Shown here: in pieces, positions 1 to 63,796 of the stretch
Position numbering within the stretch: position 1 is the stretch's first letter
Layout of the letters: each line of letters opens with the position of its first letter
Assembly: GCA_016213935.1 (NCBI GenBank)
Contig: JACQZG010000006.1
Location: 60,622 to 124,621, forward strand
Reading direction: 5' to 3'
Length of the DNA: 64,000 nt
Source of the DNA: Nitrospirota bacterium
GTDB lineage: Bacteria; Nitrospirota; Thermodesulfovibrionia; UBA6902
Made by a program: the position numbers and the translations under genes
The notes under the pieces: generated by a model
What the model saw: the letters and a program-made list of their open reading frames with translations, nothing else
Databases searched by the model: none
Told to the model about the DNA's origin: nothing

Positions 1-45
1 CAGTATCTTAGGAAGGCGGGACAGGAGCTTACAATCATTAAAGAC

Positions 46-2560: not shown

Positions 2561-4210
<1,650 letters not shown>

Positions 4211-4680: not shown

Positions 4681-5370
4681 TTAATAGGAAAACATTCTCC
4701 TCTTTATGCTGCCGGAGAGCATCAATATAATAATGATGCCGGCAATGAAACCGCCTATGTGGGCAAACCACGCGACTCCGCCCTGGTCTGCGACGCCTTT
4801 GCTTATCATCCCGTTTATTATCTGGATAACTATCCAGAATCCTATTACAAAGAAAGCCGGAAGCTGTATGACCCGGATGAAGAAACCGAGAAATATAATG
4901 GTGTGTATGCGCGCGCGGGGAAAGCGTATCATGTATGCTCCGAGCACTCCCGATATCGCCCCGCTTGCGCCTATCATCGGCGCGGCCGAGGAAGGGGAAG
5001 TAAGGGTGTGCCCGTACGCGGCGGCAACTCCGCAGAGTATATAAAAGAGTAAAAACCTGAAGTGGCCGAGCGTGTCTTCAACATTATTCCCGAATATCCA
5101 GAGGTACAACATGTTGCTTCCGAGGTGCAGTACGCCTCCGTGCATGAACATAGACGTGAAGATGGTAAGCGACGGATGGATGGGCTGAACCTTTTTCATG
5201 GATATCAGATAGGAGGGGATTGCCCCGTAAGAATATACCAATGTTTTATAAGCATTCACGTCGGCCACGGCGGTGAGCATATAGAAAAATACCGCCATGT
5301 TTGAAACGATAAGAAGCAGTGTTATAAAGGGGAATGTGCGGGCAGGGTTGTCGTCTTTGTAAGGGATCAT
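4681..5370 (-). CDS. Rhomboid-family intramembrane serine protease
   Basis: Multi-TM protein with a GASGAISGVLGAYM serine motif and a downstream AHIGGFIAGI histidine helix. Confidence 0.8.
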   Translation of the reverse strand: MIPYKDDNPARTFPFITLLLIVSNMAVFFYMLTAVADVNAYKTLVYSYGAIPSYLISMKKVQPIHPSLTIFTSMFMHGGVLHLGSNMLYLWIFGNNVEDTLGHFRFLLFYILCGVAAAYGHTLTSPSSAAPMIGASGAISGVLGAYMIRFPRARIHTIIFLGFFIRVIQLPAFFVIGFWIVIQIINGMISKGVADQGGVAWFAHIGGFIAGIIIILMLSGSIKRRMFSY

Positions 5371-6021: not shown

Positions 6022-7137
6022 ATGAAGAAAGAAGAAAAGGGACACAAGCATTTCAGGTGCAGACAGCCCCTTAAGCCTAAGGGCATAAAAAAGGGCATGA
6101 AGGTTGACGATGTCATAGAGAGCGCGATGTTTTCCTTTAACGCCGGGGCGTTCAGAAAGGCATGCGAGCTTTTTGCCGGCCACGTGGTTTCTGAAAATGT
6201 AAGGGTAGGGGTTTCTCTCGCGGGCGCCCTCGTCCCCGCAGGAATAGGCCGGAGCTGCCTCATCCCCCTGATGAAGGCCGGCATGGTTGACTGGATAGTA
6301 TCCACGGGGGCTAACCTCTATCATGACCTTCATCTGATATTAGGATACGATTTCTGCAGGGGGCATGCCGATGCCGATGACACGCAGCTCAGGGAGAAAG
6401 GGATCATCAGGATACATGATATTTTTCTCGATTATGATGCCCTGCTCGATACGGACAGTTTCATAAGAAAGACGATAAGCAATTATTTTTCAGGAAAGGG
6501 CGAGCCCTGCTCGAGCGCCGATATCCATGCGGCCCTCGGAAAAGAGATTATCAGGATAAAGCCGTCTTTAAAGAATGAAAGCGTTTTGGCTGTTGCTTAT
6601 GAATGCGGGATACCTGTTCACACCTCTTCGCCCGCCGATTCGAGCATTGGGATGAATATAGCCGCGCTTATGCTTGAGGAGAAGCCTGTTCCGTTTGATA
6701 CCCATAAAGATGTCAATGAAGTTACGAGCTATGTCTATGACATAAAGAAGAGGGGCGGCGAGAGCGCGGTGCTTTTGCTCGGGGGCGGAAGCCCTAAAAA
6801 CTTTGTGCTCCAGACTGAGCCTCATATACAGGAGGTGCTCGGGCTCCCTGAGTCAGGGCATGACTTCTTTATCCAGTTCACAGACGCGCGGCCGGATACA
6901 GGCGGCCTTAGCGGCGCGACTCCTTCAGAGGCTGTGTCTTGGGGGAAGATAGACCCGAACGCGCTTTCAAAAACAATAGTCTCATACGGCGATTGCAGCC
7001 TGATGCTTCCATTCTTTGTCAGCTACGCGCTGAACAGATCCAAACCCCGCCCGAATTCAAGGCTCTTTGAGAAGAAAGAGAAGCTCGTAAAACAGCTTAA
7101 AGACGATTACAGGAAGAAGGGCAGTTATAAGAAGTAA
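6022..7137 (+). CDS. Deoxyhypusine synthase-like (homospermidine synthase-like) protein
   Basis: ORF features include ...WIVSTGANLYHDL and LLLGGGSPKNF; length and the STGAN motif resemble the DHS family. Assignment is from memory only. Confidence 0.6.
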   Translation: MKKEEKGHKHFRCRQPLKPKGIKKGMKVDDVIESAMFSFNAGAFRKACELFAGHVVSENVRVGVSLAGALVPAGIGRSCLIPLMKAGMVDWIVSTGANLYHDLHLILGYDFCRGHADADDTQLREKGIIRIHDIFLDYDALLDTDSFIRKTISNYFSGKGEPCSSADIHAALGKEIIRIKPSLKNESVLAVAYECGIPVHTSSPADSSIGMNIAALMLEEKPVPFDTHKDVNEVTSYVYDIKKRGGESAVLLLGGGSPKNFVLQTEPHIQEVLGLPESGHDFFIQFTDARPDTGGLSGATPSEAVSWGKIDPNALSKTIVSYGDCSLMLPFFVSYALNRSKPRPNSRLFEKKEKLVKQLKDDYRKKGSYKK

Positions 7138-7267: not shown

Positions 7268-7678
7268 TTATTTGAACGGATTTATTACTTCAAGGCCCGG
7301 ATAATTGAAATCTTTTGCATTCCGCGTAACCAGTCGCAATTCATGGTGCAAGGCAGTTGCGGCAAGAAGGCTGTCGATGCTGGGGACCGGGCGCCCGACC
7401 TTTGCAAGAAGACTGCCCCAACGGTCTGCCACGGCAATATCAACAGGAAGCACCCGTCCATCAAACCATGCCGGAAGTTCATGTTCCAGCCAGAGGCGCA
7501 GTTTCTCGCGCCGTTTTCCGTCAGTAAGGGAATCTATGCCCTTGCGAATCTCGCCGAGTGTCAGGACGCTCACAAAGAGTGCGTCACCGGGCAGTTGATC
7601 GAGCCATGTAATCACCGACTTGTTCGGGTTGCGGCAGATCGTCTCTGATAAAATATTGGTATCGAGCAGATAACTCAT
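7268..7678 (-). CDS. vapC: PIN-domain toxin VapC
   Basis: MSYLLDTNILSE... with acidic PIN residues; overlaps the upstream antitoxin gene by 4 nt. Confidence 0.85.
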   Translation of the reverse strand: MSYLLDTNILSETICRNPNKSVITWLDQLPGDALFVSVLTLGEIRKGIDSLTDGKRREKLRLWLEHELPAWFDGRVLPVDIAVADRWGSLLAKVGRPVPSIDSLLAATALHHELRLVTRNAKDFNYPGLEVINPFK

Positions 7679-7926
7679 GCGATCTCAGCTTTGCGCGTTA
7701 GTGTTTGCTCGCGCTTCAGTTTAAGTTTCATACCGTAAAGCGGCGAACGGCGCATGAATTCCACGAAACTCCCTCTTGGATGCCTGAGTTGTTCATATTC
7801 CTCTCTTGAAATCACTACGGCGGTTTGTTGCCCGTGAATAGTGATATTCTGAGGGCCTTCCTTTGTCGCCTTTTTAATAACCTCGCTCAGGCGTGCCTTT
7901 GCCTCCTGTAACTGCCATGTAGCCAT
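7675..7926 (-). CDS. vapB: Phd/YefM-family antitoxin (VapB partner); the track ORF extends to 7947, the ATG at 7926 carries a GGAGG SD
   Basis: MATWQLQEAKARLSEVIKKATKEGPQNITIHGQQTAVVISREEYEQL matches the Phd/YefM fold pattern. Confidence 0.8.
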   Translation of the reverse strand: MATWQLQEAKARLSEVIKKATKEGPQNITIHGQQTAVVISREEYEQLRHPRGSFVEFMRRSPLYGMKLKLKREQTLTRKAEIA

Positions 7927-7963
7927 GACAACCTCCTTTTGGTTCACCCTCGATAATCCCTAA

Positions 7964-7989
7964 ATATAGTCAGTCTGGTCAGACTATAT
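7964..7989 (-). promoter_or_regulatory. Inverted repeat upstream of the vapBC operon; candidate antitoxin operator
   Basis: atatagtcagtctggtcagactatat: perfect 8-bp outer arms, about 40 nt upstream of the vapB start. Confidence 0.45.
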
Positions 7990-8031
7990 TATCACTTTTG
8001 GGAAAGGTTTGCAAAGGTCTGCCTGCACTTT

Positions 8032-9249
8032 TCACACATTCGTCCTGTGCACGCCGGCGGGGCGCCATGCCGGAGAGATGACCGCGGGGCGTGAAGTATA
8101 CGGCATATAAGCCGCCCATGATACCGTGGAGTCGCCGTGCCTGTCATTGATGCCGTCCGCCGTGTTAAGCAGGTTCTCTTTTTTCAGATGGCCTGAAAGG
8201 AGGTTTAACTGCGCAGGCATCCCCGTTTCCCTTAACCCTGACAGGCTGACGCCGAGAAGCCTTACCGAGTCGCTGAGTTTAATCCCCCTGATTATCTCCA
8301 TCGCGGTGTTGTGTATCTCATGAGTGTCATTGATGTGCCTGTTTATCTTAAGCTGTTTTGTGAATGTCCTGAAGCTCTTGTACCTTATGGTTACAGTCAC
8401 GGTATCGCCCGCGAGTTTATATCTTCTCGCGCGCCTGCCCGCCATTTCAGAAAGCTTAAGCATGTAAGCCTCTATCTCTTCTTCACGCCATATGTCGCGC
8501 GGAAGCGTCATGCTGTGCCCGACCGACTTTGCCGTCTCCTCATTGCTCATCACGGGTGAAGTGTCTATGCCCATTCCCATGAGCTTGAGCCTCTCGCCTA
8601 TTATCCCGAACCGGCTTTTAAGCAGGCTTACGGGCGCCCTGCCGAGTTCACCGCAGGTTCTTATGCCGAGCGCCCCGAGCTTTTCAGCAATCTTTCCGCC
8701 TATTCCCCAAAGCGCGTCAACAGGAAGACGCTCAATCGCCTCCGGTATCTCTTCCTGCCTGATAAATTTCAGCCCGTCAGGTTTTGAGATGTCGCTTGCG
8801 AGCTTTGCCATGAGCTTGTTCGGCCCCATGCCTATCGTGGCGTTAAGCCCGAACCTCTCCTTTATCTCCCTCTTTATCATCTTTCCGATTTCGATCGGGC
8901 TTCCGAAAAGTTTGAGCGAGCCTGTTATGTCGAGAAATGCCTCGTCGATCGAATAGACCTCGACCTCTGAGGTATATTTTGAGTAAATCTCCGTAAGCAT
9001 CCTGCAGGTATGCGTGTATTTGCCGTTGTTTCCCGTGACAAATATCAGTTTTGGGCAGACCTTTTTCGCCTCCCAGACATTCATGCCCGTCTTTACTCCG
9101 AAACTCCTCGCTTCATAAGACGCGGTCGTGATGACAGTTCTCTTTCCCGAACCTATGACAGCCACGGGCTTTCCGCGCAGGGCAGGGTTGCTCTGCTGCT
9201 CCACGGACGCAAAGAATGAATCCATGTCAACAAGCAATATTGTTCTCAT
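8032..9249 (-). CDS. dinB: DNA polymerase IV (Y-family, DinB)
   Basis: MRTILLVDMDSFFASVEQQSNPALRGKPVAV, the SIDEAFLD motif and Y-family palm/fingers blocks. Confidence 0.9.
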   Translation of the reverse strand: MRTILLVDMDSFFASVEQQSNPALRGKPVAVIGSGKRTVITTASYEARSFGVKTGMNVWEAKKVCPKLIFVTGNNGKYTHTCRMLTEIYSKYTSEVEVYSIDEAFLDITGSLKLFGSPIEIGKMIKREIKERFGLNATIGMGPNKLMAKLASDISKPDGLKFIRQEEIPEAIERLPVDALWGIGGKIAEKLGALGIRTCGELGRAPVSLLKSRFGIIGERLKLMGMGIDTSPVMSNEETAKSVGHSMTLPRDIWREEEIEAYMLKLSEMAGRRARRYKLAGDTVTVTIRYKSFRTFTKQLKINRHINDTHEIHNTAMEIIRGIKLSDSVRLLGVSLSGLRETGMPAQLNLLSGHLKKENLLNTADGINDRHGDSTVSWAAYMPYTSRPAVISPAWRPAGVHRTNV

Positions 9250-9494
9250 ATCCCTGCCTCCACCCCCTCGAGCACCCAGTTTATCGAGCCTGTATTGAAG
9301 CTAAGTTCATAAAGCGTTGCCCCGTCAGTTACGGAAAAATGCATAAGCCTGCCCGCGCCTTTGGACGTTATCCATTCGTATGTGACGTCTTTTACATTTA
9401 TCTGCCGGTTCGACCACCTGAACCTTAAAGGCCTGAGCCTCGAATTTCCCAAGAATGCGGCTATCACAGAGACCTCTTCTTCCACCCGGACCAC
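9246..9494 (-). CDS. Hypothetical 82-aa protein translationally coupled between lexA and dinB
   Basis: ORF overlaps the lexA stop by 1 nt and the dinB start by 4 nt; I do not recognise a family. Confidence 0.5.
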   Translation of the reverse strand: MVRVEEEVSVIAAFLGNSRLRPLRFRWSNRQINVKDVTYEWITSKGAGRLMHFSVTDGATLYELSFNTGSINWVLEGVEAGI

Positions 9495-10108
9495 TAAAGC
9501 CTCCTCAATATTCCTTTCACCCTGCCGATTATCTTAACCTCTTCTGCCTTGAATACCATCGGTGTCATCTCTTTATTCTCGGGCACGAGCCTGACGATGG
9601 TCTTTGCCAGAAAGAACCTTTTTACTGTTGCTTCATCTTCAATTAGCGCCACAACGATATCGCCGTTCTTCGGCTCTGCCTCAGTCGATATCAACGCTAT
9701 GTCGCCCTCTAATATTCCGGCATCTATCATGCTGTCGCCTTTTACCCTGAGCGCAAATCCGCCTTCAACTTTGAAAAGGTTTTTATCTATGTTTATGTAC
9801 CCCTCAATATTTTCCACAGCCAATACCGGCGCGCCTGCCCTTACGGTTCCGAGAAGGGGGATCTTATTTTTTTCAGCCGGATTAACGCCGGCAATCTCAA
9901 GAGACCTCTGTTTCTGGGGGGATTTTTTGAGCAGTCCTTTTTTTGCCAGGGCATTTATATGAGACTGTGCAGAGAGGGGGCTTGCAAAACCGAAACCACT
10001 CGCCACCTCCCGCACAGTCGGGGGGAACCCGTTGTCAATTATATGTTTTTTGATAAAATCAAAGACCGCAAGCTGTTTCACGGTCGGCTGTCTCATCTTC
10101 TGCGCCAT
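9494..10108 (-). CDS. lexA: LexA repressor; the track ORF begins at a TTG at 10123, ATG at 10108 is more likely
   Basis: N-terminal winged HTH (VREVASGFGFASPLSAQSHINALAKKG), an AG cleavage site (VRAGAP) and the S24 peptidase motif GDSMIDAGI...K. Confidence 0.9.
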   Translation of the reverse strand: MAQKMRQPTVKQLAVFDFIKKHIIDNGFPPTVREVASGFGFASPLSAQSHINALAKKGLLKKSPQKQRSLEIAGVNPAEKNKIPLLGTVRAGAPVLAVENIEGYINIDKNLFKVEGGFALRVKGDSMIDAGILEGDIALISTEAEPKNGDIVVALIEDEATVKRFFLAKTIVRLVPENKEMTPMVFKAEEVKIIGRVKGILRRL

Positions 10109-10112
10109 GAAA

Positions 10113-10134
10113 CTACTATACAAATGTATAGTAG
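10113..10134 (-). promoter_or_regulatory. Putative LexA operator (SOS box) abutting the lexA start
   Basis: CTACTATACAAATGTATAGTAG: 10 of 11 arm positions are palindromic. It resembles the E. coli-type TACTG(TA)5CAGTA box with CTAT in place of CTGT. Confidence 0.65.
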
Positions 10135-10245
10135 TTTTGTCAAGGGGGAATACTGCCTGACGGCAACCGCTTAGTACTTAAAAATTATCTTGAAGTAAGT
10201 TAACGGCATATGTTTTAATTCAAGAAACTAATTGGGAGGTAACAG

Positions 10246-11017
10246 ATGATTAAGAAAAAGGTCGCGGCATTATTGATTCCATTTCTATTAATCGTTGTGT
10301 TATATGGCTGTGCTTCGATACCGCCATTGCCTGAAACGATAAATATTGTCCCTCCATCACCGGATGTCCCTCCTAAATTAGCCGCGTTATCAGGTGGTTG
10401 GAAAGGTAATTTTAACAGTCTCGTAAATGTTACCGTTATCGTTGAAAAAATAAATGTTAATGAAGCTGAAATTATCTATAGTTGGGGTGATGCTCCCCAT
10501 TTAAATGCAGGATATGTATATGCCAAGAGTCAAGTGCTTAACGGTGATTCCATTCAATATACTGATGCAGAAGGAGGTGTATTGACATTAGTAATGGAGC
10601 AGGAGCCTGATAATGTAACAGGATATAGAGATAACCCCTATTTCAGAAAATGTTTCATCTGAATTAGCGGGATTTTTAGGGGTATGGGAGGGGAAATGGG
10701 GCGCGATGCAGGGATTGGATACGATGTTTATTATCGAATATATTGATAATGAAAAAGCAGAGGTTACTTTCAGTTTTGGCGGTGATGCGTCTGGGTATAT
10801 GAATTTTACGGGTAAGGTTCTTCAAGGGCCTACAATTCAATGGGAAATGGACAAACTACTTGGAATACTCAAAGATGAGGAAATGAAAGATTTCAAATGT
10901 CCGTGCATTATGTCCTTTAAATTGCGGAATGATGCTGACAAGCTTATCGGTTTTTTTGAATTTCCGACCTACGATGTCAAGATACGTGGAGATTTCAGCC
11001 GGAAGGTAATTCAATAA
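10246..11017 (+). pseudogene. Lipoprotein gene with two tandem homologous domains, split by a frameshift near 10590-10660
   Basis: Lipobox LLIVVLYGCAS; repeat 1 (GGWKGNFNS...IIYSWGDAP) in frame 1 and repeat 2 (GVWEGKWGA...VTFSFGGDA) in frame 2 are clearly homologous, so one gene was broken by an indel or a sequencing error. Confidence 0.5.
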
Positions 11018-21902: not shown

Positions 21903-24014
21903 ATGGCTAAACATTCTTTATTGGAAGGGCTCAACCCGCAGCAGCAAAAAGCTGTTTTACATATTAAGGGGCCCATGCTTGTGCTTGCGGGCGCCGGCAG
22001 CGGCAAGACCAAAGTAATTACCCACAGGTTCGCTTATCTTTCGAGCGCCTGCGATGTCCAGCCGTCATCCATCCTCGCAATGACATTCACGAATAAGGCT
22101 GCCAATGAGATGAGAGAGAGGGTTGAGGAGCTTACCGGAAAGGGGACAAGAGGGCTTTGGATAGGCACGTTCCATTCTCTTTCAAGCAGGATATTAAGGA
22201 AAGAGATAGAAAAGCTCGGCTACGGCAGGGACTTTTGCATATATGACGAGAGCGATACGAGCAGCCTTATCAGGTCTATACTCAAAGAATTCAGGATGCA
22301 CGAAGCGCTTTACAAGGGGATAGCGTCGCGCGTATCTTCTCTTAAGGCCTCTCTTGTAAGCTCCGAGGCGCTTATCGCAAATGAAGAGAGCTACGGTTTC
22401 GATGAAAAACTCGCAAAGGTTTACGTCAGGTATCAGGAGGACCTGAAAAAGAACAACGCCCTTGATTTCGACGACCTGATAACGTGCACGGTAAAACTCT
22501 TTGAGGAACACCCAACTGTCCTTAAAAAGTATCAGGATGAATTTGAGCATATAATGATCGACGAGTTCCAGGACACAAACCTTTCCCAGTACAGGCTTTC
22601 GAGGCTCCTTGCCTCCAGGCATAAAAATATATTCGTCGTCGGGGATGACGACCAGAGCATATACAAGTTCAGGGGCGCGGAGATAGGCAATATACTCAAT
22701 TTTGAAAAGGACTTTTCAAAGGCAAAGGTAATCAGGCTTGAGCAGAATTACAGGTCAACGCAGAACATACTCGATGCCGCCGGCAGCGTGATAGAGCAGA
22801 ATGAATCGAGGAAATCCAAAAAGCTCTGGACAGACAGGGGCAGGGGAGAGAAGATATCCTACTGCATAGCAAATAATGAACAGGAAGAGGGCGGTTTTAT
22901 AGCCCAGACCATAAAGGACCTCTATCTGAAAGGCAAGTATTCCTACGGCGATATGACCATCCTCTACAGGCTGAATCAGCAGTCGAGGGTCCTGGAAGAA
23001 TCGATGCGCGGAAGCGGCATCCCTTATAATGTCGTGGGCTCGATAAGTTTCTACAGGAGAAAAGAGGTGAAGGATATCATCTCTTATCTGAAAGTTATAA
23101 ATAACCCGAATGATTCGGTAAGCCTGAAGCGCATAATCAACTCGCCCCCGAGAGGGATAGGCAAGACTACGCTTACGAGGCTCGGGAACGAGGCAAAGAA
23201 GAAAGAGAAGAGCCTCTTCGGGATCATGAAGCATGTGGTCAAAGGCAACGGCTACTCTTCCTCCTTCAGGGATAAGATAAAAGGCTTCACATCCCTGATG
23301 GACGAACTTATAGGGGATAAGGATGCGGAGCTTTCGGAGCTGATAAACCTGATATACGAAAAGACCGGCTATCTCGAGTGGGCGGGCGAAGAGAAGCGCG
23401 GCAACCTCATGGAGATCATAAGCTCTGCCGAAGGCAAGGCAATGGAGGATTTTCTGGACAACGCGTCGCTCTTCAGCGCGCATGACGAGGAAGAGACAAA
23501 GGATACGGTCTCTCTCATGACGCTTCATACGGTCAAGGGGCTTGAATCGCCCGTTGTCTTTATCGCGGGGCTCGAAGACGGGCTCATGCCGCATTTTTAC
23601 TCCATCAACAGGGATGACGAGATTCAGGAAGAGAGGAGGCTCTTTTATGTCGGCATGACGAGGGCGCGCGACATTCTCTTTCTGTCAGGAGTGAAAAGGA
23701 GAAAGCTTTACGCCTCGGTGCAGGACCAGCAGCCTTCGAGATTCCTAAGCGAAATACCTTCGGAGTGCTGCTGTTATATAGAGAAGAGGCCGAGGACAGG
23801 GGCTCTTAGCAAGGGTGCGCGTGTAATACAGATGAGGCCGCGCAGCACCTCCCCTTTTGCAACCGGGGTGAGGGTGCGCCATCCGAAGTGGGGCGAGGGG
23901 GTCGTAAGAGACAGTTACGGCGAAACTGACGACACCAAGGTCATGGTCAACTTCCCGTCCGTAGGCATAAAGAGGCTGTCTCTTAAATTCGCGAATCTCG
24001 AGAAAATAAGATGA
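21903..24014 (+). CDS. uvrD: UvrD/PcrA/Rep-family ATP-dependent DNA helicase
   Basis: LNPQQQKAVLHIKGPMLVLAGAGSGKTKVITHR Walker A; SF1 motifs including DEFQDTN and VGDDDQSIY. Confidence 0.9.
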   Translation: MAKHSLLEGLNPQQQKAVLHIKGPMLVLAGAGSGKTKVITHRFAYLSSACDVQPSSILAMTFTNKAANEMRERVEELTGKGTRGLWIGTFHSLSSRILRKEIEKLGYGRDFCIYDESDTSSLIRSILKEFRMHEALYKGIASRVSSLKASLVSSEALIANEESYGFDEKLAKVYVRYQEDLKKNNALDFDDLITCTVKLFEEHPTVLKKYQDEFEHIMIDEFQDTNLSQYRLSRLLASRHKNIFVVGDDDQSIYKFRGAEIGNILNFEKDFSKAKVIRLEQNYRSTQNILDAAGSVIEQNESRKSKKLWTDRGRGEKISYCIANNEQEEGGFIAQTIKDLYLKGKYSYGDMTILYRLNQQSRVLEESMRGSGIPYNVVGSISFYRRKEVKDIISYLKVINNPNDSVSLKRIINSPPRGIGKTTLTRLGNEAKKKEKSLFGIMKHVVKGNGYSSSFRDKIKGFTSLMDELIGDKDAELSELINLIYEKTGYLEWAGEEKRGNLMEIISSAEGKAMEDFLDNASLFSAHDEEETKDTVSLMTLHTVKGLESPVVFIAGLEDGLMPHFYSINRDDEIQEERRLFYVGMTRARDILFLSGVKRRKLYASVQDQQPSRFLSEIPSECCCYIEKRPRTGALSKGARVIQMRPRSTSPFATGVRVRHPKWGEGVVRDSYGETDDTKVMVNFPSVGIKRLSLKFANLEKIR

Positions 24015-26401: not shown

Positions 26402-28108
26402 ATGCCTTCAAACGACAGCAGCCTCGAAGAGATAAAGAGCAGGATCGATATCGTTGAAATGATATCTGAATATGTTTCTCTGAAAAAAGCGGGGCACAAC
26501 TGGAAGGGCCTCTGCCCTTTCCATTCCGAAAAGACCCCGTCTTTCATGGTAAATCCCTCCAGGCAGATATATAAGTGTTTCGGGTGCGGCAGCGGCGGGG
26601 ACATCTTCTCTTTCGTTATGCAGCATGAGAACCTCGGCTTCAGGGAGGCTCTCGTGCTTCTGGCAAAAAAGGCGGGCGTCACGCTGAAGGATACGGGCAT
26701 TGGCGCGGGGGCCGCGGGCGAAAAGGAAGAACTTTTCAATATAACCAGGCAGGCGCTCGATTTTTTCAGGCAGAGCCTTACAAAGAGCCTGAAGGCGGCA
26801 GACTATCTGCGAAAGAGAGGCGTGGGCGAGGACGCGCAGAATTTTTTCAGCCTCGGCTACGCTCCGAGGTCATGGGACGCCTTAAAGAATCATCTCGAGG
26901 GAAAGGGATTCAGGACAGAAGCGTTGCTCAAGGCAGGGCTTATCGTCAGGGGAGATAAAGGGCTTTATGACAAATTCAGAGACAGGGTCATCTTCCCGAT
27001 ATTCAATCTTCAGGGAGAGGCTGTTGCCTTCGGGGGCAGGGTCATGGACAGCTCCGAGCCCAAGTATCTTAACTCTCCTGAAACGCCCCTCTTCAATAAA
27101 AGCAGGATGCTCTACGGGCTCAATAACGCAAAAAAACATATCAAAGACGCGGGCAGCGCCCTGCTTATGGAAGGGTATCTCGATGTGATAACGGCTTATA
27201 CGAATGGTTTTAAAAACGCGGTCGCGCCGTTAGGCACCGCGTTTACGCAGGAGCAGGGGAAGCTCATAAAAAGGTTTACGGACAACGCCATACTCTTTTT
27301 TGACAGGGACGAGGCCGGCGTAAAGGCGGCAAAAAACGCGACAGGGATACTCGTTGGATGCGGGCTTAATGTCATGCTCTCTTCTCTTCCGGAGGGGGAA
27401 GACCCTGACAGTTTCATAAGGCGGCAAGGCAGTGAAGCCTTTAATAAACTCCTCGGCAATCCTCTTACGCTTATTGATTTTTTACTTCAGCAGAAGAAGC
27501 AGAGACACCAAATTATCGGCGACGCGGTCGAGATAATCTCAAAGGCCGATGATCTTTCTCAGGCAGTGCATGTGAGGAGGCTCTCCGAAAAACTGAAACT
27601 GGAAGAGCGCCATATTTATGAGGAGATCGGGAAGATAAGGCAGAAGGCGAATAGGGAGGCCGGCCGGGCAGAGAAATCGCCCGAGCTTGTCCTGAGCAGA
27701 AAAAAGCCCAAACCTCTTGACGAAATGTATATAATTAAACTGCTCCTGCAGTTTCCGGATAAAAGCGGAGAGATATTTGCGTCGATAAAAGAAGATGATT
27801 TCCAGGATCCTGCGGCAAGGTCTGTTTTAAAAAAAATAAGAGGGGGGCTTACTGATTTCGATAAGCTCATTCTTCAATGCGAAGAAGGCGAGAAATGGCT
27901 TCTCAGCGACGTCATCTTCAAAAACGACTTTGAAGACCCTGACAAGGTTTTGAAGGACTGCCTGCGCTGCATAAAAGAGAAGAAGCATAAGCTTCAGCTT
28001 CAGGAACTGAGGGACAGGATAAGGGATGCCGAGCTGCGGAAAGACGACGAACTGCTTAAAAAACTTTTAATGAGACAGGACAGCCTTCAGAAAACCGCCG
28101 GCAGGTGA
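26402..28108 (+). CDS. dnaG: DNA primase
   Basis: [30 protein letters not shown] zinc ribbon, then a TOPRIM domain (EGYLDVI). Confidence 0.92.
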
Positions 28109-28109
28109 T

Positions 28110-29609
28110 ATGAGTGATTTTGTAGATATATTCATGCCCGATGACGAAGATGACCTCGAACTTCTCGAGAGCGCCGAAGAGGGAGAGGAGCAGGATGAGG
28201 CAAAGACCCCCGCTTTTCAGGATGAGATCTCCACTGACGACCTTATAAGGATATACCTTAGGGACATGGGCGCGCTTCCGCTTCTCAGCAAGGAGGAGGA
28301 GATAGAGGTCGCAAAGAACATCGAGGCAGAGAACGAGAAGCTTCGCCGCATAGTCTTCGCCCTCCCCTTTGTCATAAAGAAGGTGATAGCTTTGCAGGAA
28401 GTTTTTAAAGGCAACGGCGTCGCGATAGAGGAACTTATCTCTTACGCGGACAATATTTCCGATGCGGACAGGCAGAGCGTCAATGACCATTTCTCAAAGA
28501 CATTGAAAACAATAAAGAGCCTTTACTCCAAAAGAGAGATATTAGTAGCCCAGTTCAAGCAGAAAGGCATTCCCGCCGAAAAGAAGGCCTCATTAAAGAA
28601 CGCCCTTGAGGAGAATCAGAAGGAGATATTCAGAAAGATCTCGGAACTGAGGCTTGAGGAGAAGGTTATCAGCCTCTTCATCGAACAGTTCAAGGAAAAA
28701 CTCGCCAGGCTCGGCGTGCTTAGAAAAAGCGCAGGCCGCGCGGAGGGCAGAAGCGAAGACGGCCAGCCTGACATTAAAACCGTAAAGGCGGAGATTGCCG
28801 AGATAGAGACTTTACTTGGGCTGGATTATGCAGAGGCAAAAAAAGTCCTGAAACTCCTCGCATATCATGAAAAGAGGGTGCTTCTCGTAAAGAGAAGGCT
28901 GATAGAGGCGAACCTCAGGCTTGTCGTCAGCATGGCAAAGAAGTATATGGGGCGGGGACTGGGTCTGCCCGACCTTGTTCAGGAAGGGAATATAGGGCTC
29001 ATAAGGGCTGTGGAAAAGTTCGAATACCGCAGAGGCTATAAATTCAGCACCTATGCGACATGGTGGATAAAGCAGGCGATAACCCGTTCTCTCGCCGACT
29101 GCGCGAGGACGGTCAGGATCCCGGTTCATGTCGTAGGCACTCTAAGCTGTTTTGCGAAGGCGTCGAGGGAGCTTGTCCAGGAGCTCGGCAGGGAGCCTTC
29201 CCCCGAAGAGATTGCCGAGAGGATGGGCATAAGCAATGACAAGATGAAGGAGATTATGGAGATAGCGAAAGAGCCTGTCTCTCTCGAGACTCCCATAGGC
29301 GAAGGAGCAGACACATATCTCCTCGACCTTCTTGAAGACAAGACCGCCCTCTCTCCCCTGGATTCCGCCATTCACAATAACCTTCAGGAGCAGATAGAAA
29401 AGATAATGAGGACACTCTCTCCCAAGGAGTCGGAGATAATCAAGCGGAGGTTCGGCATAGGAGAGGGGCACCCCGAAACGCTCGAAGAGGTCGCGCAGAA
29501 GTTCAATGTCACAAGGGAGAGGATAAGGCAGGTCGAGGCGAATGTGCTGAGAAAACTGAGGCACCCTTCGAGGACCAAATGGCTCAAGGAGTTCATGGAC
29601 AAGAGCTGA
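28110..29609 (+). CDS. rpoD: RNA polymerase sigma-70 (primary sigma factor)
   Basis: Region 2.4 ([13 protein letters not shown]), region 4 and an acidic N-terminus; the dnaG-rpoD operon arrangement. Confidence 0.95.
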
Positions 29610-44203: not shown

Positions 44204-46099
44204 ATGAACCGCTACGTTATTCTCGGCACAGCCGGACACATTGACCACGGAAAGAGCGCGCTTGTTAAGGCGCTCACAGGCACAGACCCTGACAGGCTGA
44301 AGGAAGAGAAGGCGAGGGGAATCACCATTGACCTCGGTTTTGCAGACCTCTCATATCCCGACGGGCTCAGGGTGGGCATCATCGATGTGCCGGGGCATGA
44401 GAGGCTTGTGAAGAACATGCTTGCGGGCGCAAGCGGTATCGATATCGTCCTCATGGTGATAGCGGCTGACGAAGGAATAATGCCGCAGAGCAGAGAGCAC
44501 CTCGCCATCTGCAACCTTCTCAAAGTGAAGAAGGGCATCATCGCCATCACAAAATCCGACCTTGTTGATAAAGAGTGGCTTTCTCTTGTCATTGAAGAGG
44601 TGAAGGAGTTTGCGAAAGGGACATTTCTCAAAGGCGCCGAAATAATCGCGGTCTCCTCAAAAACGGGCGAGAATCTTGATCTCTTAAAAGAGAAGATAAA
44701 AGAGGCGGCATCCGGCGTTGAGCCCAAGCATGAGAAGGCTGTCTTCAGGCTTCCTGTTGACAGAGTATTTACTCTTAAGGGTTTCGGCACGGTTGTCACA
44801 GGCACCTCCATTTCAGGAAGCATTAAAACGGACGCGCCTGTTGAGATACTTCCCAAGGGAATCGCGGCAAAGGTGCGGGGGCTTCAGAGCCACGGTGAGG
44901 CCATTGAAGCCGCATATGCCGGGCAGAGGGTTGCGGTAAACCTTCTTGGCGTTTCAAAGGATGAGATTCAGAGGGGGGATGTGCTGGCGACCCCGGGCAA
45001 ACTGAAGTCTTCCCACGTTGTTGACGCCGAGATAGAACTTCTTAAGGATTCTCCTCTCAATTCCCTCAAGAACAGGAGCCTCGTGCATTTCCATGCCGGC
45101 TCATCCGAGATTACCGGAAGGATAATCATATACGGAAAGGATGAACTGAAACCCGGAGAGGATGCTTTATGCCAGTTCCGCTTCCCAAAGCCGGTCGCGC
45201 TCATGGCGGGCGACAGGTACATAATCAGGCGCTTCTCCCCGCTTATGACGATTGGAGGGGGCGAGGTTATTGACCCGTCGCCGAGGAGGAGAAAGAAGGG
45301 GCAGGATATTGAGGGTCAGAGCGTCTTTGTTGAAGGTAGCCTCTCTGAAAAGATAGCCGCAAAGATACGGCAGAAAGGGCTCCAGGGCCTTTCACGCGGG
45401 GAGCTTGAAGGCTGGATAATGGCAGAGCTTGCGGACATAAATTCCGCCCTCGATAAACTTATCAGCAGGGGCGAGATCATGAAGTGCGAAGAGCGGCTCA
45501 TCCATAAAGATGCCTTTAATGATTTCTCAGGCGGCATCATCTCAATGCTCAGGGATTTTCACGCAAAGAATCCGCTCAAGCCGGGCATGCCGAAAGAGGA
45601 GATACGGTCATCTTTTCAGGCTATTGACCAGCGGCACTTTGACGGTTTGCTCGCAAAAGTCAAAGATATTGTCTTTGATAAAGAGGTGATAAAGTTAAGC
45701 GCATTCAGGCTCTCTTTGAGCGAAGGAAACAAGGAAACAAGGGAGAAGATTTTAAAGGCTCTCGATGCATCGGAATTTCAGCCCCCGACAGATGAAGAAC
45801 TCGCCGCACTGGCCAGGGTTGACAAGAAAGAGGTGGCCGAGATACTTAAGATAATGGCAAAGGAAGGGGAGATTGTGAGGATAAAGGACTCCATATATAT
45901 ATCAAAGCCAAACCATTCAAAGATGATCGAGAGGCTGAAGGGCTTTTACTCGAAAAAAGCCGAGATGACGGTCGGCGAGTTCCGAGATATTCTTAACACA
46001 TCGAGAAAATACGCGCTCCCTTTCCTTGAATATCTCGACGGCAGCAGGATAACGATGAGGGTGGGCGACGTTAGGAAGTTTCTTTATAAAGGGCAGTGA
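44204..46099 (+). CDS. selB: Selenocysteine-specific translation elongation factor
   Basis: GTAGHIDHGKSALVKALTG G1 motif, DVPGHERL, and winged-helix mRNA-binding C-terminal domains; total 631 aa. Confidence 0.92.
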   Translation: MNRYVILGTAGHIDHGKSALVKALTGTDPDRLKEEKARGITIDLGFADLSYPDGLRVGIIDVPGHERLVKNMLAGASGIDIVLMVIAADEGIMPQSREHLAICNLLKVKKGIIAITKSDLVDKEWLSLVIEEVKEFAKGTFLKGAEIIAVSSKTGENLDLLKEKIKEAASGVEPKHEKAVFRLPVDRVFTLKGFGTVVTGTSISGSIKTDAPVEILPKGIAAKVRGLQSHGEAIEAAYAGQRVAVNLLGVSKDEIQRGDVLATPGKLKSSHVVDAEIELLKDSPLNSLKNRSLVHFHAGSSEITGRIIIYGKDELKPGEDALCQFRFPKPVALMAGDRYIIRRFSPLMTIGGGEVIDPSPRRRKKGQDIEGQSVFVEGSLSEKIAAKIRQKGLQGLSRGELEGWIMAELADINSALDKLISRGEIMKCEERLIHKDAFNDFSGGIISMLRDFHAKNPLKPGMPKEEIRSSFQAIDQRHFDGLLAKVKDIVFDKEVIKLSAFRLSLSEGNKETREKILKALDASEFQPPTDEELAALARVDKKEVAEILKIMAKEGEIVRIKDSIYISKPNHSKMIERLKGFYSKKAEMTVGEFRDILNTSRKYALPFLEYLDGSRITMRVGDVRKFLYKGQ

Positions 46100-61282: not shown

Positions 61283-63796
61283 ATGCTCGATAATATTGTC
61301 ATCAGGAAGGCAAGGGTTCACAACCTCAAAAATATAGACCTTCGCATCCCCCGCGGCAAATTCACCGTCATAACCGGCCCCTCAGGTTCTGGAAAGTCGT
61401 CGCTTGCCTTTGATACTATCTACGCCGAAGGGCAGAGGCGCTTTGTCGAGAGCCTTTCGGCATATGCAAGGCAGTTCCTTGAACAACTGCAGAAGCCTGA
61501 CGTTGATTCTATCGAGGGGCTCTCTCCCTCGATTGCTGTGGAACAGAAGCTCCAGGCAGGGAATCACCGTTCTACCGTCGCTACGATAACGAAAATATAC
61601 GATTACCTGAAGGTTGTGTATTCGAGGATAGGAAGGCTGAACTGCCATAAATGCGGAAGCCCGATAACAACGCAGGGCCTCTCGAGGATAGTCGAATCAG
61701 TTGCATCCCTGCCTGAGGGGACCCGCATCCAGATACTCTCTCCTGTTGTGATGGGGCGCAAGGGCGAGCACAGGAAGGAGCTGCTCGAGGCGAGAAGGAG
61801 GGGGTTTATCAGGGCAAGGATAGACGGCGAGATGGCTGATATCACAAAAGACCTGAAGCTCGGCAAACATAAAAGGCACAACATAGACATCGTTATCGAC
61901 AGGCTTATAATAAAGCCCGGCATAGACAGGTATCTCTCAAAGGCGATAGCCGATGCCGTGGATATGAATGATGTTGTAATAATTAATGATACAGACAATG
62001 GCAAAGACATCTTTTACAGCACTAAGCTCGCCTGCCCCAAATGCGGGATAAACTATCCTGAGATCAGCCCGCGCTTCTTTTCTTTTAACAGCCCGTTCGG
62101 CGCGTGCCCCGCGTGCAAAGGGCTCGGCCACACAGGCGTTGACGAGGAGGGGCATGACGCCGGGAGGCCGGCTGTTTGCCCCGAATGCGGAGGGATGAGG
62201 CTGAGGCCCGAAGCGCTCAGCGTTACGGTCAGCGGCCTTCATATAGGCGAATTCCTTTCAGTCTCCATAAATGACGCAACACGCCTAATCAACGGATTAA
62301 AACTTAATGCGGCGGAAGAGGCAATCGCTTCAAAAGTGCTCAAGGAGATAAAAGAGAGGCTCTGTTTTTTAGAGGATGCCGGCCTCGGGTACATATCTCT
62401 TGACAGGCCTGCCCCAACCCTTTCAGGAGGGGAGATACAGAGGATAAGGCTTGCGGCGCAGATAGGCTCATCTCTTTCAGGAGTCCTTTATATATTTGAT
62501 GAACCGAGCATCGGCCTTCACCCGCGCGACTGCGGCAGGCTCATCCAAAGCATGATGAAGTTAAGGGATATGGGCAATACCGTGATAGTGGTTGAGCATG
62601 ACGAGGAGACGATCAGAAAGGCTGATCATATAATTGACATGGGCCCCGGGGCCGGAGTTCACGGGGGGTATGTTGTCGCCGAAGGCAGCATCAGTGATAT
62701 ATCCTTTAACCGCAATTCACTGACCGGGCTTTATCTAAGGGGTGAGAGAGCCATCGGCCTGCCTGATTCGAGGAAACGCGGCAGGGAATCGATTAAGGTG
62801 ATTGGCGCAAAAGAGTTCAACCTTAAGAATATAGATGTCGAATTCCCTCTCGGGCTCTTTACCTGCGTTACGGGTGTTTCCGGCTCAGGCAAGAGCACTT
62901 TGGTGCTTGATATTCTCTATAATTCGCTTGCAGAGAAGCTGTATTCATCAAAGGCTCTTCCCGGCAGGCACGAGCGCATAGAAGGCATTGATAAGATCGA
63001 CAAGGTGATAAATATCGACCAGTCTCCTCTTGGGAGGAGCCCGCGCTCAAACCCTGCCACATATACAGGGATCTTCACGATCGTGAGGAGCCTTTTTTCG
63101 CAGGCAACAGATTCGAAGGTGAGAGGGTATAAACCGAGCAGATTCAGTTTTAATGTCGCAGGCGGGAGATGTGAGGCTTGCGGAGGCGACGGCCTCGTGA
63201 AGGTCACGATGCACTTTTTGCCCGATGTATATGTCCCGTGCGAATCCTGCAAGGGGGCGAGATATAATAAGGAAACGCTCGAGATAAGGTATAAGGGGAA
63301 AAACATCTCCGAGGTTCTCGGCATGACCGTAACCCAGGCGCTTGATTTTTTTGAAGCTATCCCGCAGCTCAGGAGAAAGCTTATGACTCTTGCGAGGGTG
63401 GGGCTCGGCTATATAGAACTCGGACAGTCGGCTACCACCCTTTCCGGCGGTGAGGCGCAGAGAGTGAAACTCTCGAAGGAGCTTAGCAGAAGAGCGACCG
63501 GAAATACATTGTATATTCTCGACGAGCCTACGACAGGCCTCCATTTTGTGGATATAGAGAAGCTTCTCGATGTATTGAGAGAGCTTGTGGAAGCCGGCAA
63601 TACCGTCATAGTGATTGAACATAATCTTGAAGTGATAAAGAATGCCGATTATATAATAGACTTGGGGCCCGAAGGCGGGGACAAGGGAGGAAAGGTGATT
63701 GCTTTGGGAACTCCAGAAGATGTTGCCGGAAATCCGGCGTCTCATACAGGGGCTTTTCTCAGGGAAAAATTATCGGCTAAAGAGGTGAAGGCATGA
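61283..63796 (+). CDS. uvrA: Excinuclease ABC subunit A (837 aa; appears to lack the insertion domain)
   Basis: Two ABC modules (GPSGSGKSS..., GVSGSGKST...), zinc modules (CPKCG...CPACKG; CEACGGDG...CESCKG) and the C-terminal ...[18 protein letters not shown]. Confidence 0.9.

Follow-up and report, generated by a model that had tools for sequence, protein, structure and literature searches.

Three adjacent genes on the minus strand, lexA, an open reading frame (ORF) of 82 codons and dinB, and a palindrome lying at the start of lexA are the subject of this analysis; they occupy positions 8032 to 10137 of the window, the whole 64-kb stretch of DNA analysed, which comes from a metagenome-assembled genome (MAG) of Nitrospirota (contig JACQZG010000006.1). 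The identities of the genes, the homology of the middle product to the ImuB-C family, the synteny, the conservation of the operator and its overlap with the promoter are established directly, and the locus is read here, with high confidence, as a LexA-autoregulated lexA–imuB-C–dinB operon. Its features are as follows.

9494..10108, minus strand: lexA, ATG start, 204 residues, autocleavable SOS repressor
9246..9494, minus strand: imuB-C (the 82-residue ORF), GTG start, standalone ImuB-C domain protein
8032..9249, minus strand: dinB, 405 residues, Y-family DNA polymerase IV (Pol IV) with an extended C-terminus
10110..10137, dyad: predicted LexA operator, inverted repeat AAACTACTATACA-AA-TGTATAGTAGTTT, arms of 13+13 nt
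10114-10133: conserved 20-bp box, core TATAC-N4-GTATA
10138..10143, minus strand: −35 hexamer TTGACA, from the promoter scan
10115..10120, minus strand: −10 hexamer TATAGT, doubling as the right arm of the operator

The product of the first gene can be assigned as a canonical LexA. It combines an N-terminal winged helix (Pfam LexA_DNA_bind, PF01726, 8.6e-19) with a C-terminal peptidase domain (Peptidase_S24, PF00717, 9.5e-33) and matches the NCBIfam equivalog TIGR00498 (209.6 bits; cut-off 110.95). The cleavage site Ala-Gly 91-92 (RAGAP 90-94) and the dyad of Ser126 (GDSM 124-127) and Lys163 (TVKR 161-164) are present, and these columns are invariant in an alignment with nine other LexA proteins. 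The third product is likewise assigned as a catalytically intact Pol IV, with the domains IMS (PF00817, 3.7e-52) and IMS_C (PF11799, 1.9e-27), the catalytic residues D8 and D102-E103, and a score of 313 bits against the equivalog PRK02406 (cut-off 256). Both equivalog matches bear out the SOS-type operon proposed in an earlier annotation made from the letters alone, hereafter the sequence-only reading. The polymerase carries a C-terminal extension of about 55 residues with three features: a clamp-type motif (QLNLL, 347-351), a stretch resembling the RecA N-terminus (RecA-NT; LLNTADGINDRHGDSTVSWA, 360-379), which is conserved across loci and gives a weak match to DUF4113 (E 0.011, 16.2 bits, cut-off 24), and a tail, ISPAWRP at 391-397 (ISPAWRPxGV), which is kept in Nitrospirota and delta-proteobacterial relatives, including the Geobacter-like locus L048. 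A RecA-NT motif is carried by the polymerases termed 'GeoPolY-like' (Timinskas & Venclovas 2019, PMC6511836), and the window DinB resembles them in its coupling to a standalone imuB-C; its stretch at 360-379, with the weak DUF4113 match, may correspond to this motif.

The three genes are tightly packed. At the junction TAGTG the stop codon of lexA and the GTG of the 82-residue ORF have one base in common, and at the junction ATGA the stop codon of this ORF and the ATG of dinB overlap by 4 nt; the two downstream genes have the Shine-Dalgarno sequences GAGGAGG and GGAGG, respectively, each within the preceding gene. Thus, the translational coupling of three minus-strand genes overlapping by 1 and 4 nt, as the sequence-only reading had it, is borne out by the ORF coordinates and the junctions.

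The middle gene had been described as matching no family, which proved wrong: when its family profile is compared with the C-terminus of a genuine ImuB, it falls into ImuB-C (PMC3765255, PMC6511836). This superfamily, whose prototype is GSU0042, was defined by Aravind, Anand & Iyer in 2013 as domains of about 80 residues, formed by β strands and with a conserved C-terminal Trp, which occur fused at the C-terminus of ImuB and as standalone proteins, the latter 'most frequently' combined with DinB and often with LexA too (PMC3765255). The window product is identical to HY809_01365 of a Nitrospirae MAG and has 14 close homologs (59-100% identity, 35 invariant positions); a profile search started with them retrieved 719 cluster representatives (clusters at 50% identity) at E ≤ 1e-3, 164 of them even at E ≤ 1e-10; almost all have 78-90 residues. 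These homologs and cluster representatives show that the ORF is a real gene. One 4098-residue protein (P0079) with seven stretches matching the profile was discarded as spurious, being a surface protein of immunoglobulin (Ig)/cadherin repeats.

The link to ImuB rests on several comparisons. Pfam DUF6504 (PF20114) is matched by 61 of 95 diverse family representatives (E ≤ 0.01; best 8.7e-9), one relative is named 'DUF6504 family protein' by NCBI, and the same domain spans residues 423-500 of the ImuB of a Sinorhizobium imuA-imuB-dnaE2 cassette, at 30.7 bits and above the cut-off. Aligned by hhalign, the 95-sequence family profile matches the C-terminus of this ImuB with a probability of 93.8% (E 1.7e-7), and the family hidden Markov model (HMM) also matches the ORF adjoining lexA on the Geobacter anodireducens plasmid pSD (1.3e-29). 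W73 is the sole invariant column among the 95 diverse members; in the close set R30 is invariant and R24 nearly so, and the family consensus at window positions 29-30 is GR, the window protein itself having N29-R30. An AlphaFold model, with a predicted local distance difference test (pLDDT) score of 94, gives seven β strands and no helix, and the 9 basic and 9 acidic residues leave a net charge of about 0. The window protein accordingly displays the traits of the superfamily, namely a standalone length of about 80 residues, a mostly β composition, a C-terminal Trp with basic residues, no catalytic motif, and homology to the ImuB C-terminus and the Geobacter protein. Pfam offered no family for it besides DUF6504, NCBIfam gave no match, a PDB sequence search with the family profile returned nothing below E 0.29, and a literature search for 'DUF6504' found no papers, the family being recognized only through the locus tag GSU0042. 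Given the DUF6504 and hhalign matches to ImuB, the Geobacter HMM match, W73 and the modeled strands, the gene is assigned to the standalone ImuB-C proteins, to which it adds a Nitrospirota member, and its product to a divergent branch of the DUF6504-containing superfamily that falls outside the Pfam model as curated.

Upstream of lexA, the sequence-only reading had noted a 22-bp palindrome (CTACTATACAAATGTATAGTAG, 10113-10134), which is present and in fact longer: a repeat finder places its arms at 10110-10122 and 10125-10137, 100% complementary and 2 nt apart, so that the palindrome ends 1-4 nt before the ATG of lexA. It is no chance feature: when 3 mismatches are allowed, the 64 kb contain a single copy of the 20-mer core, and 100 dinucleotide-preserving shuffles contain none. 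The same box stands upstream of lexA at 23 loci in two clades of Nitrospirota, where the consensus is TAcTATACAwwTGTATAgTA (29.9 bits); a position matrix built from these orthologous sites scores the window lexA site at 31.4 bits and the next best window site at 1.1 bits. Across the 23 sites TATAC and GTATA are essentially invariant, and the outer positions depend on the clade (ACTATAC versus AGTATAC). For this reason the alignment with the Escherichia coli box CTGT-N8-ACAG, to which the outer CTAT/ATAG positions had first been likened, was rejected, and the operator core is best described as a predicted dyad with a 4-nt spacer, TATAC-N4-GTATA, like GAAC-N4-GTTC. In one relative (L016, a Nitrospirae MAG), a second box-like site, AATACAAATGTATA, lies at 3988-4001 between lexA and imuB-C.

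The box also coincides with a promoter. The best site of a promoter scan over 7600-10400, σ70-like with 11 of 12 matches and a 17-nt spacer, is placed such that the palindrome fills the spacer and takes in the −10 hexamer, and TTGACA stands at the same distance in L001, L002, L004 and L006-L013. With this overlap and the conservation at 23 loci, the palindrome is the best candidate for the LexA operator, as had been proposed, and is very probably that operator, LexA binding being predicted from these features. The −10 hexamer ends 6 nt before the ATG of lexA, whose A (10108) is the 7th base after it; in 11 relatives this A is the 7th to 9th base past the hexamer. No Shine-Dalgarno sequence precedes lexA, unlike both downstream genes. 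Because of the short spacing, its recurrence in the 11 relatives and the lack of a Shine-Dalgarno sequence, the simplest reading is that the lexA mRNA is probably leaderless or nearly so.

The same 20-mer is found well beyond Nitrospirota. Metagenome contigs were scanned for TACTATACNNNNGTATAGTA, which gave at least 120 loci, and the nearest ORFs flanking the sites on both sides were clustered. In at least about 30 loci of other lineages the box precedes lexA and repair genes. Sites of a first class, with an A/T-rich center like that of the window, lie directly upstream of damage-response genes: lexA (at least 15 loci), DUF72 followed by a Y-family homolog and DnaE2 (at least 5), DUF4130 (at least 4), a radical-SAM/HhH repair protein (at least 3) and dnaE2 (at least 3). 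The LexA proteins of this class are just 31-38% identical to that of the window, and their nearest named relatives come from an Actinobacteria/Humimicrobiaceae MAG (98%, L172) and a Verrucomicrobiota MAG (67%, L152). The box is thus not a lineage-specific LexA motif, as had been suggested, the identical 20-mer standing before lexA and translesion genes alongside such distant repressors; its position in front of canonical SOS genes elsewhere makes the palindrome a credible LexA box. No description of a LexA box with a TATAC half-site was found in the searchable literature, which does not prove that it is unpublished.

At L152 (762-1395), and also at L063, L141 and L147, a LexA 48-67% identical to that of a 'Verrucomicrobiota bacterium' MAG is encoded behind a TACTATAC-N4-GTATAGTA box, and the A of the lexA ATG is the last base of the box; the published motif for Verrucomicrobia is TGTTC-N4-GAACA (PMC4951493). 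Sites of a second class, in which the arms TACTATAC and GTATAGTA enclose a G/C-rich 4-nt center (CCCA, TAGG, CCGG), lie upstream of genes for CsoR/RcnR-family metal-sensing repressors (PF02583) in at least 17 loci (L062, L067, L071, L085, L094, L102, L113, L126, L132, L133, L135, L138, L142, L154, L160, L167, L174). These appear to be look-alike operators of an unrelated regulator family, with near-identical arms and a different center. Sites with an A/T-rich center also precede genes for HxlR regulators, in at least 3 loci.

The gene neighborhood of imuB-C was surveyed at 57 loci, some of them redundant pairs, from Nitrospirota (Thermodesulfovibrionia, Nitrospira), 'Deltaproteobacteria'/Thermodesulfobacteriota including Geobacter, Elusimicrobia/Endomicrobiales, Spirochaetia and Calditrichota (Caldithrix). 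The arrangements are distributed as follows.

lexA, imuB-C and dinB all adjacent: 29 loci
lexA–imuB-C, with dinB 1-3 kb off beyond unrelated genes: 7 loci
lexA–imuB-C, with dinB absent within 1.5 kb or more: 4 loci
imuB-C–dinB, no adjacent lexA: 10 loci
neither lexA nor dinB as neighbor: 2 loci
one flank lost at a contig end: 5 loci (lexA–imuB-C 3, imuB-C–dinB 1, neither 1)

In 54 of the 57 loci imuB-C is accompanied by lexA (adjacent in 40 and within about 1 kb in 2), by dinB or by both, and imuB-C tracks lexA as faithfully as it tracks dinB. At L025 (904-2843), L027 (4326-6530) and L029 (595-2648), the genes after lexA–imuB-C encode an unannotated protein (311-365 residues) and a radical-SAM/DUF5131-like protein rather than DinB. 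In addition, DUF72 (PF01904) recurs in SOS and translesion contexts (L052 1733-2548; L050/L051 3392-4210; L073, L097, L100, L104, L125), once between imuB-C and dinB and once upstream of imuB-C-polY; we know of no assigned repair role for DUF72. In Caldithrix abyssi (L046/L047, ~4960-4975), a perfect palindrome, GTGTAC-GCAA-GTACAC, lies before an imuB-C–dinB pair lacking an adjacent lexA and just downstream of a promoter-like TATTAT/TATATT; it could be the LexA box of that organism.

Taken as a whole, a LexA-autoregulated, damage-inducible operon of a kind originally found in Geobacter sulfurreducens, with ImuB-C as a polymerase partner, is the likely account of the locus. In the undamaged cell, a LexA dimer would occupy the 20-bp box TACTATACAAATGTATAGTA; with the −35 hexamer on one side of it, the start codon on the other and the −10 hexamer within, RNA polymerase would be kept out. 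Upon damage, RecA filaments would trigger the self-cleavage of LexA (Ala91-Gly92, Ser126/Lys163), and the promoter would then fire to give a tricistronic mRNA, probably leaderless, from which imuB-C and dinB would be translated by coupling through the overlaps of 1 and 4 nt, with a separate Shine-Dalgarno sequence for either gene inside the one before it. DinB would act as a catalytically competent Pol IV equipped with the β-clamp motif, the RecA-N-terminus-like motif and the conserved tail, and the 82-residue β-barrel ImuB-C would most likely serve as its small noncatalytic partner, helping to assemble or license a PolY-RecA-ImuB-C translesion complex. The binding of LexA, the leaderless start and the role of ImuB-C in this scheme are what we infer.

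Several observations weigh against this account. The matrix scan of the 64-kb window disclosed no second box, and none upstream of uvrA (61283) or the uvrD-like gene (21903), so that the regulon is unconfirmed in this genome and its support comes from orthologous promoters and other lineages; further copies upstream of repair genes, which the sequence-only reading proposed to look for, were found in metagenome loci of other lineages and not in the window. The use of the same arms by CsoR/RcnR-type genes means that the arm sequence alone is not diagnostic of LexA. The match of the window protein itself to DUF6504 is weak (16.9 bits, E 0.0079) and lies below the gathering threshold of 24.2. In 11 loci lexA and imuB-C remain coupled with dinB displaced or absent, and some imuB-C genes adjoin radical-SAM genes instead, so that a role confined to polymerases may be too narrow; such neighbors fit the broader links to repair described in 2013 (PMC3765255).

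As to the missing boxes, the genes concerned encode a UvrD/PcrA-like helicase (21903-24014) and UvrA (61283-63796, 837 residues as called), neither preceded by a LexA-type box. This suggests a small SOS regulon centered on translesion synthesis. The LexA of Geobacter, according to Jara et al. 2003, reportedly does not control uvr genes either.

Standalone ImuB-C proteins are still described as functionally uncharacterized (PMC6511836, PMC12926913, PMC8072749). On balance, our analysis leans towards ImuB-C working mainly beside the Y-family polymerase, as a noncatalytic partner within a PolY-RecA-ImuB-C complex, since it is homologous to the ImuB domain that has been modeled against DnaE2 and ImuA (PMC12926913), is syntenic with polymerase genes and has analogs in UmuD' and YolD (PMC6511836). 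In taking the middle gene for an accessory factor of translesion synthesis, the sequence-only reading agrees with the proposal made in the literature for the ImuB-C family, where the function is likewise inferred.

An alternative, first put forward by Aravind et al. in 2013 (PMC3765255), is that ImuB-C is a sensor of damaged DNA that recruits varied repair enzymes, including Pol IV, DnaE2, SplB-like radical-SAM proteins and Ku/ligase. The variety of its contexts, with dinB, with radical-SAM/DUF5131-like genes (L025, L027, L029), with DUF72 and, in Deinococcus, with dnaE2 (PMC8072749), fits such a sensor. Yet a net charge near zero is untypical of a DNA binder, and the domain, described as a β-barrel of novel fold, makes protein-protein contacts with DnaE2's PHP domain as well as with ImuA in the 2026 AlphaFold models of the mutasome (PMC12926913), which renders a sensor unlikely. 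A marginally more doubtful idea is that ImuB-C acts on the SOS switch, that is, on LexA repression or cleavage or on RecA activity, in the manner of DdrR, DinI and the phage protein gp7, rather than as a polymerase subunit. The 0-3-nt junction of lexA and imuB-C is indeed kept at the 7 loci where dinB is 1-3 kb away and at the 4 where it is absent within 1.5 kb or more, and at L055 an S24 peptidase gene is followed by imuB-C with no polymerase gene. Against this, imuB-C overlaps or abuts dinB without an adjacent lexA at 10 loci, among them Caldithrix abyssi and two Nitrospira MAGs; moreover, the domain is fused to a Y-family module in ImuB, and in the AlphaFold models this fused domain touches DnaE2 and ImuA, not LexA (PMC12926913). 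The role as polymerase partner therefore continues to be favored.

For the operator, the possibility was weighed that the palindrome belongs to another regulator of the CsoR/RcnR or HxlR type, or is a mere symmetrical promoter, given that the same 8-nt arms precede the CsoR/RcnR and HxlR genes counted above. The centers of the CsoR-type sites are G/C-rich, whereas those of lexA-linked sites are A/T-rich like that of the window; no CsoR/RcnR- or HxlR-type gene lies near the operon; and the box accompanies lexA in both Nitrospirota clades despite different flanking genes and stands before canonical SOS genes elsewhere. LexA autoregulation is, in addition, the rule in the characterized systems known to us. 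On center composition and context, the CsoR/RcnR operator was rejected, and any origin other than LexA is regarded as very improbable. Even less credible is the suggestion of the sequence-only reading that the 82-residue protein is an SOS-induced inhibitor of cell division analogous to SulA, YneA or SidA, for which only the small size and the position in an SOS operon speak, as opposed to a protein predicted to be a compact, soluble and all-β barrel (seven strands, no helix, pLDDT 94), with a net charge near zero, homology to the polymerase-associated C-terminal domain of ImuB and a synteny that follows Y-family polymerases.

With LexA retained as the predicted owner of the box, a broader proposition may be put forward tentatively: TATAC-AWWT-GTATA may be an undescribed class of LexA motif common to unrelated lineages (Nitrospirota, Humimicrobiia-type 'Actinobacteria' and some Verrucomicrobiota-like organisms), governing a minimal translesion and repair regulon (lexA, imuB-C, dinB, dnaE2, DUF72, DUF4130 and the radical-SAM protein), with ImuB-C tied to LexA itself. 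That the coupling of imuB-C to lexA outlives the loss of dinB would then hint at a role in the SOS switch, beside or instead of that with the polymerase.

Between dinB and a deoxyhypusine-synthase-like gene (6022-7137), the stretch 7268-7990 holds the genes for a toxin of the PIN/VapC type (7268-7678) and an antitoxin of the Phd/YefM type (7675-7947). Because L001, L002 and L004 are without the pair at that position, it seems to have been inserted locally; its promoter-like site is overlapped by the inverted repeat AATATAGTC-N10-GACTATATT (7963-7990), which may be the operator of the antitoxin. Farther along the window, at 26402-29609 and 44204-46099, housekeeping genes are found, namely dnaG followed by an rpoD-type sigma-70 gene, and the gene for the selenocysteine elongation factor SelB.

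Both the operon type and the family of the middle gene are already in the literature, and the locus is a Nitrospirota example of them, a sound and largely ordinary finding that does not overturn current understanding. Its new elements are modest: the TATAC-N4-GTATA LexA box and its spread across lineages, the probably leaderless lexA, and the tracking of lexA by imuB-C as faithfully as dinB. Standalone ImuB-C proteins are nevertheless widespread, as the 719 cluster representatives attest, and stand beside error-prone polymerases that drive stress-induced mutagenesis; the synteny sharpens the question to why imuB-C remains coupled to lexA once dinB moves away. The motif is also of use in the annotation of SOS regulons from uncultured phyla and in research on the evolution of LexA specificity.

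Among known systems, the closest is lexA1–GSU0042 (imuB-C)–dinB1 of Geobacter sulfurreducens, with the same order of lexA, an ImuB-C gene of about 80 codons and an active Y-family polymerase (Jara et al. 2003, cited in PMC6511836; PMC3765255). The Geobacter 'lexA-imuB-C-polY operon' is LexA-autoregulated, damage-induced and transcribed as one unit (Timinskas & Venclovas 2019, PMC6511836). The window operon belongs to a different phylum, in a Nitrospirota MAG. The polymerase of the Geobacter-like locus L048 has the clamp motif, the RecA-NT-like motif and the ISPAWRP-type tail, as does the window DinB. The operators differ, being TATAC-N4-GTATA here and GGTTGTCATACAGCAACC in L048, and in the window the operator encloses the −10 hexamer, lexA being apparently leaderless. 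The consensus of the Geobacter LexA is said to be GGTTN2CN4GN3ACC (Jara et al. 2003). As for the operator architecture, GAAC-N4-GTTC of Firmicutes and Actinobacteria and TGTTC-N4-GAACA of Verrucomicrobia (PMC4951493) are, like the window box, palindromic dyads with a 4-nt A/T-rich spacer over the lexA promoter, but the half-site here is TATAC rather than GAAC or TGTTC.

The ImuA–ImuB–DnaE2 mutasome of Mycobacterium, Caulobacter and Pseudomonas, also encoded on the Sinorhizobium plasmid p2 (L061), is likewise an SOS-controlled translesion system. In the window, by contrast, the ImuB-C domain is a separate protein, its Y-family partner is catalytically intact, and the operon has no imuA or dnaE2. 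In Deinococcus, compared by description, lexA heads an operon with a standalone ImuB-C of 80 residues, as in the window (PMC8072749); the gene order differs (lexA-imuY-imuB-C-dnaE2 in D. deserti), and there DnaE2 serves as the polymerase, the Y-family member being inactive. Lastly, the same logic is followed in E. coli by Pol V (UmuD'2C-RecA) and in Bacillus subtilis by YqjX/YolD–YqjW: a small β-rich protein is co-expressed with a Y-family polymerase whose sequence includes a RecA-NT-like motif and a conserved tail (PMC6511836). ImuB-C has no sequence relationship to their small proteins, DUF6504 being its only Pfam match, and is reported to be without the SH3-like core of UmuD' and YqjX (PMC12926913). 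Since it lacks an S24 peptidase domain, it is not expected to undergo self-cleavage.

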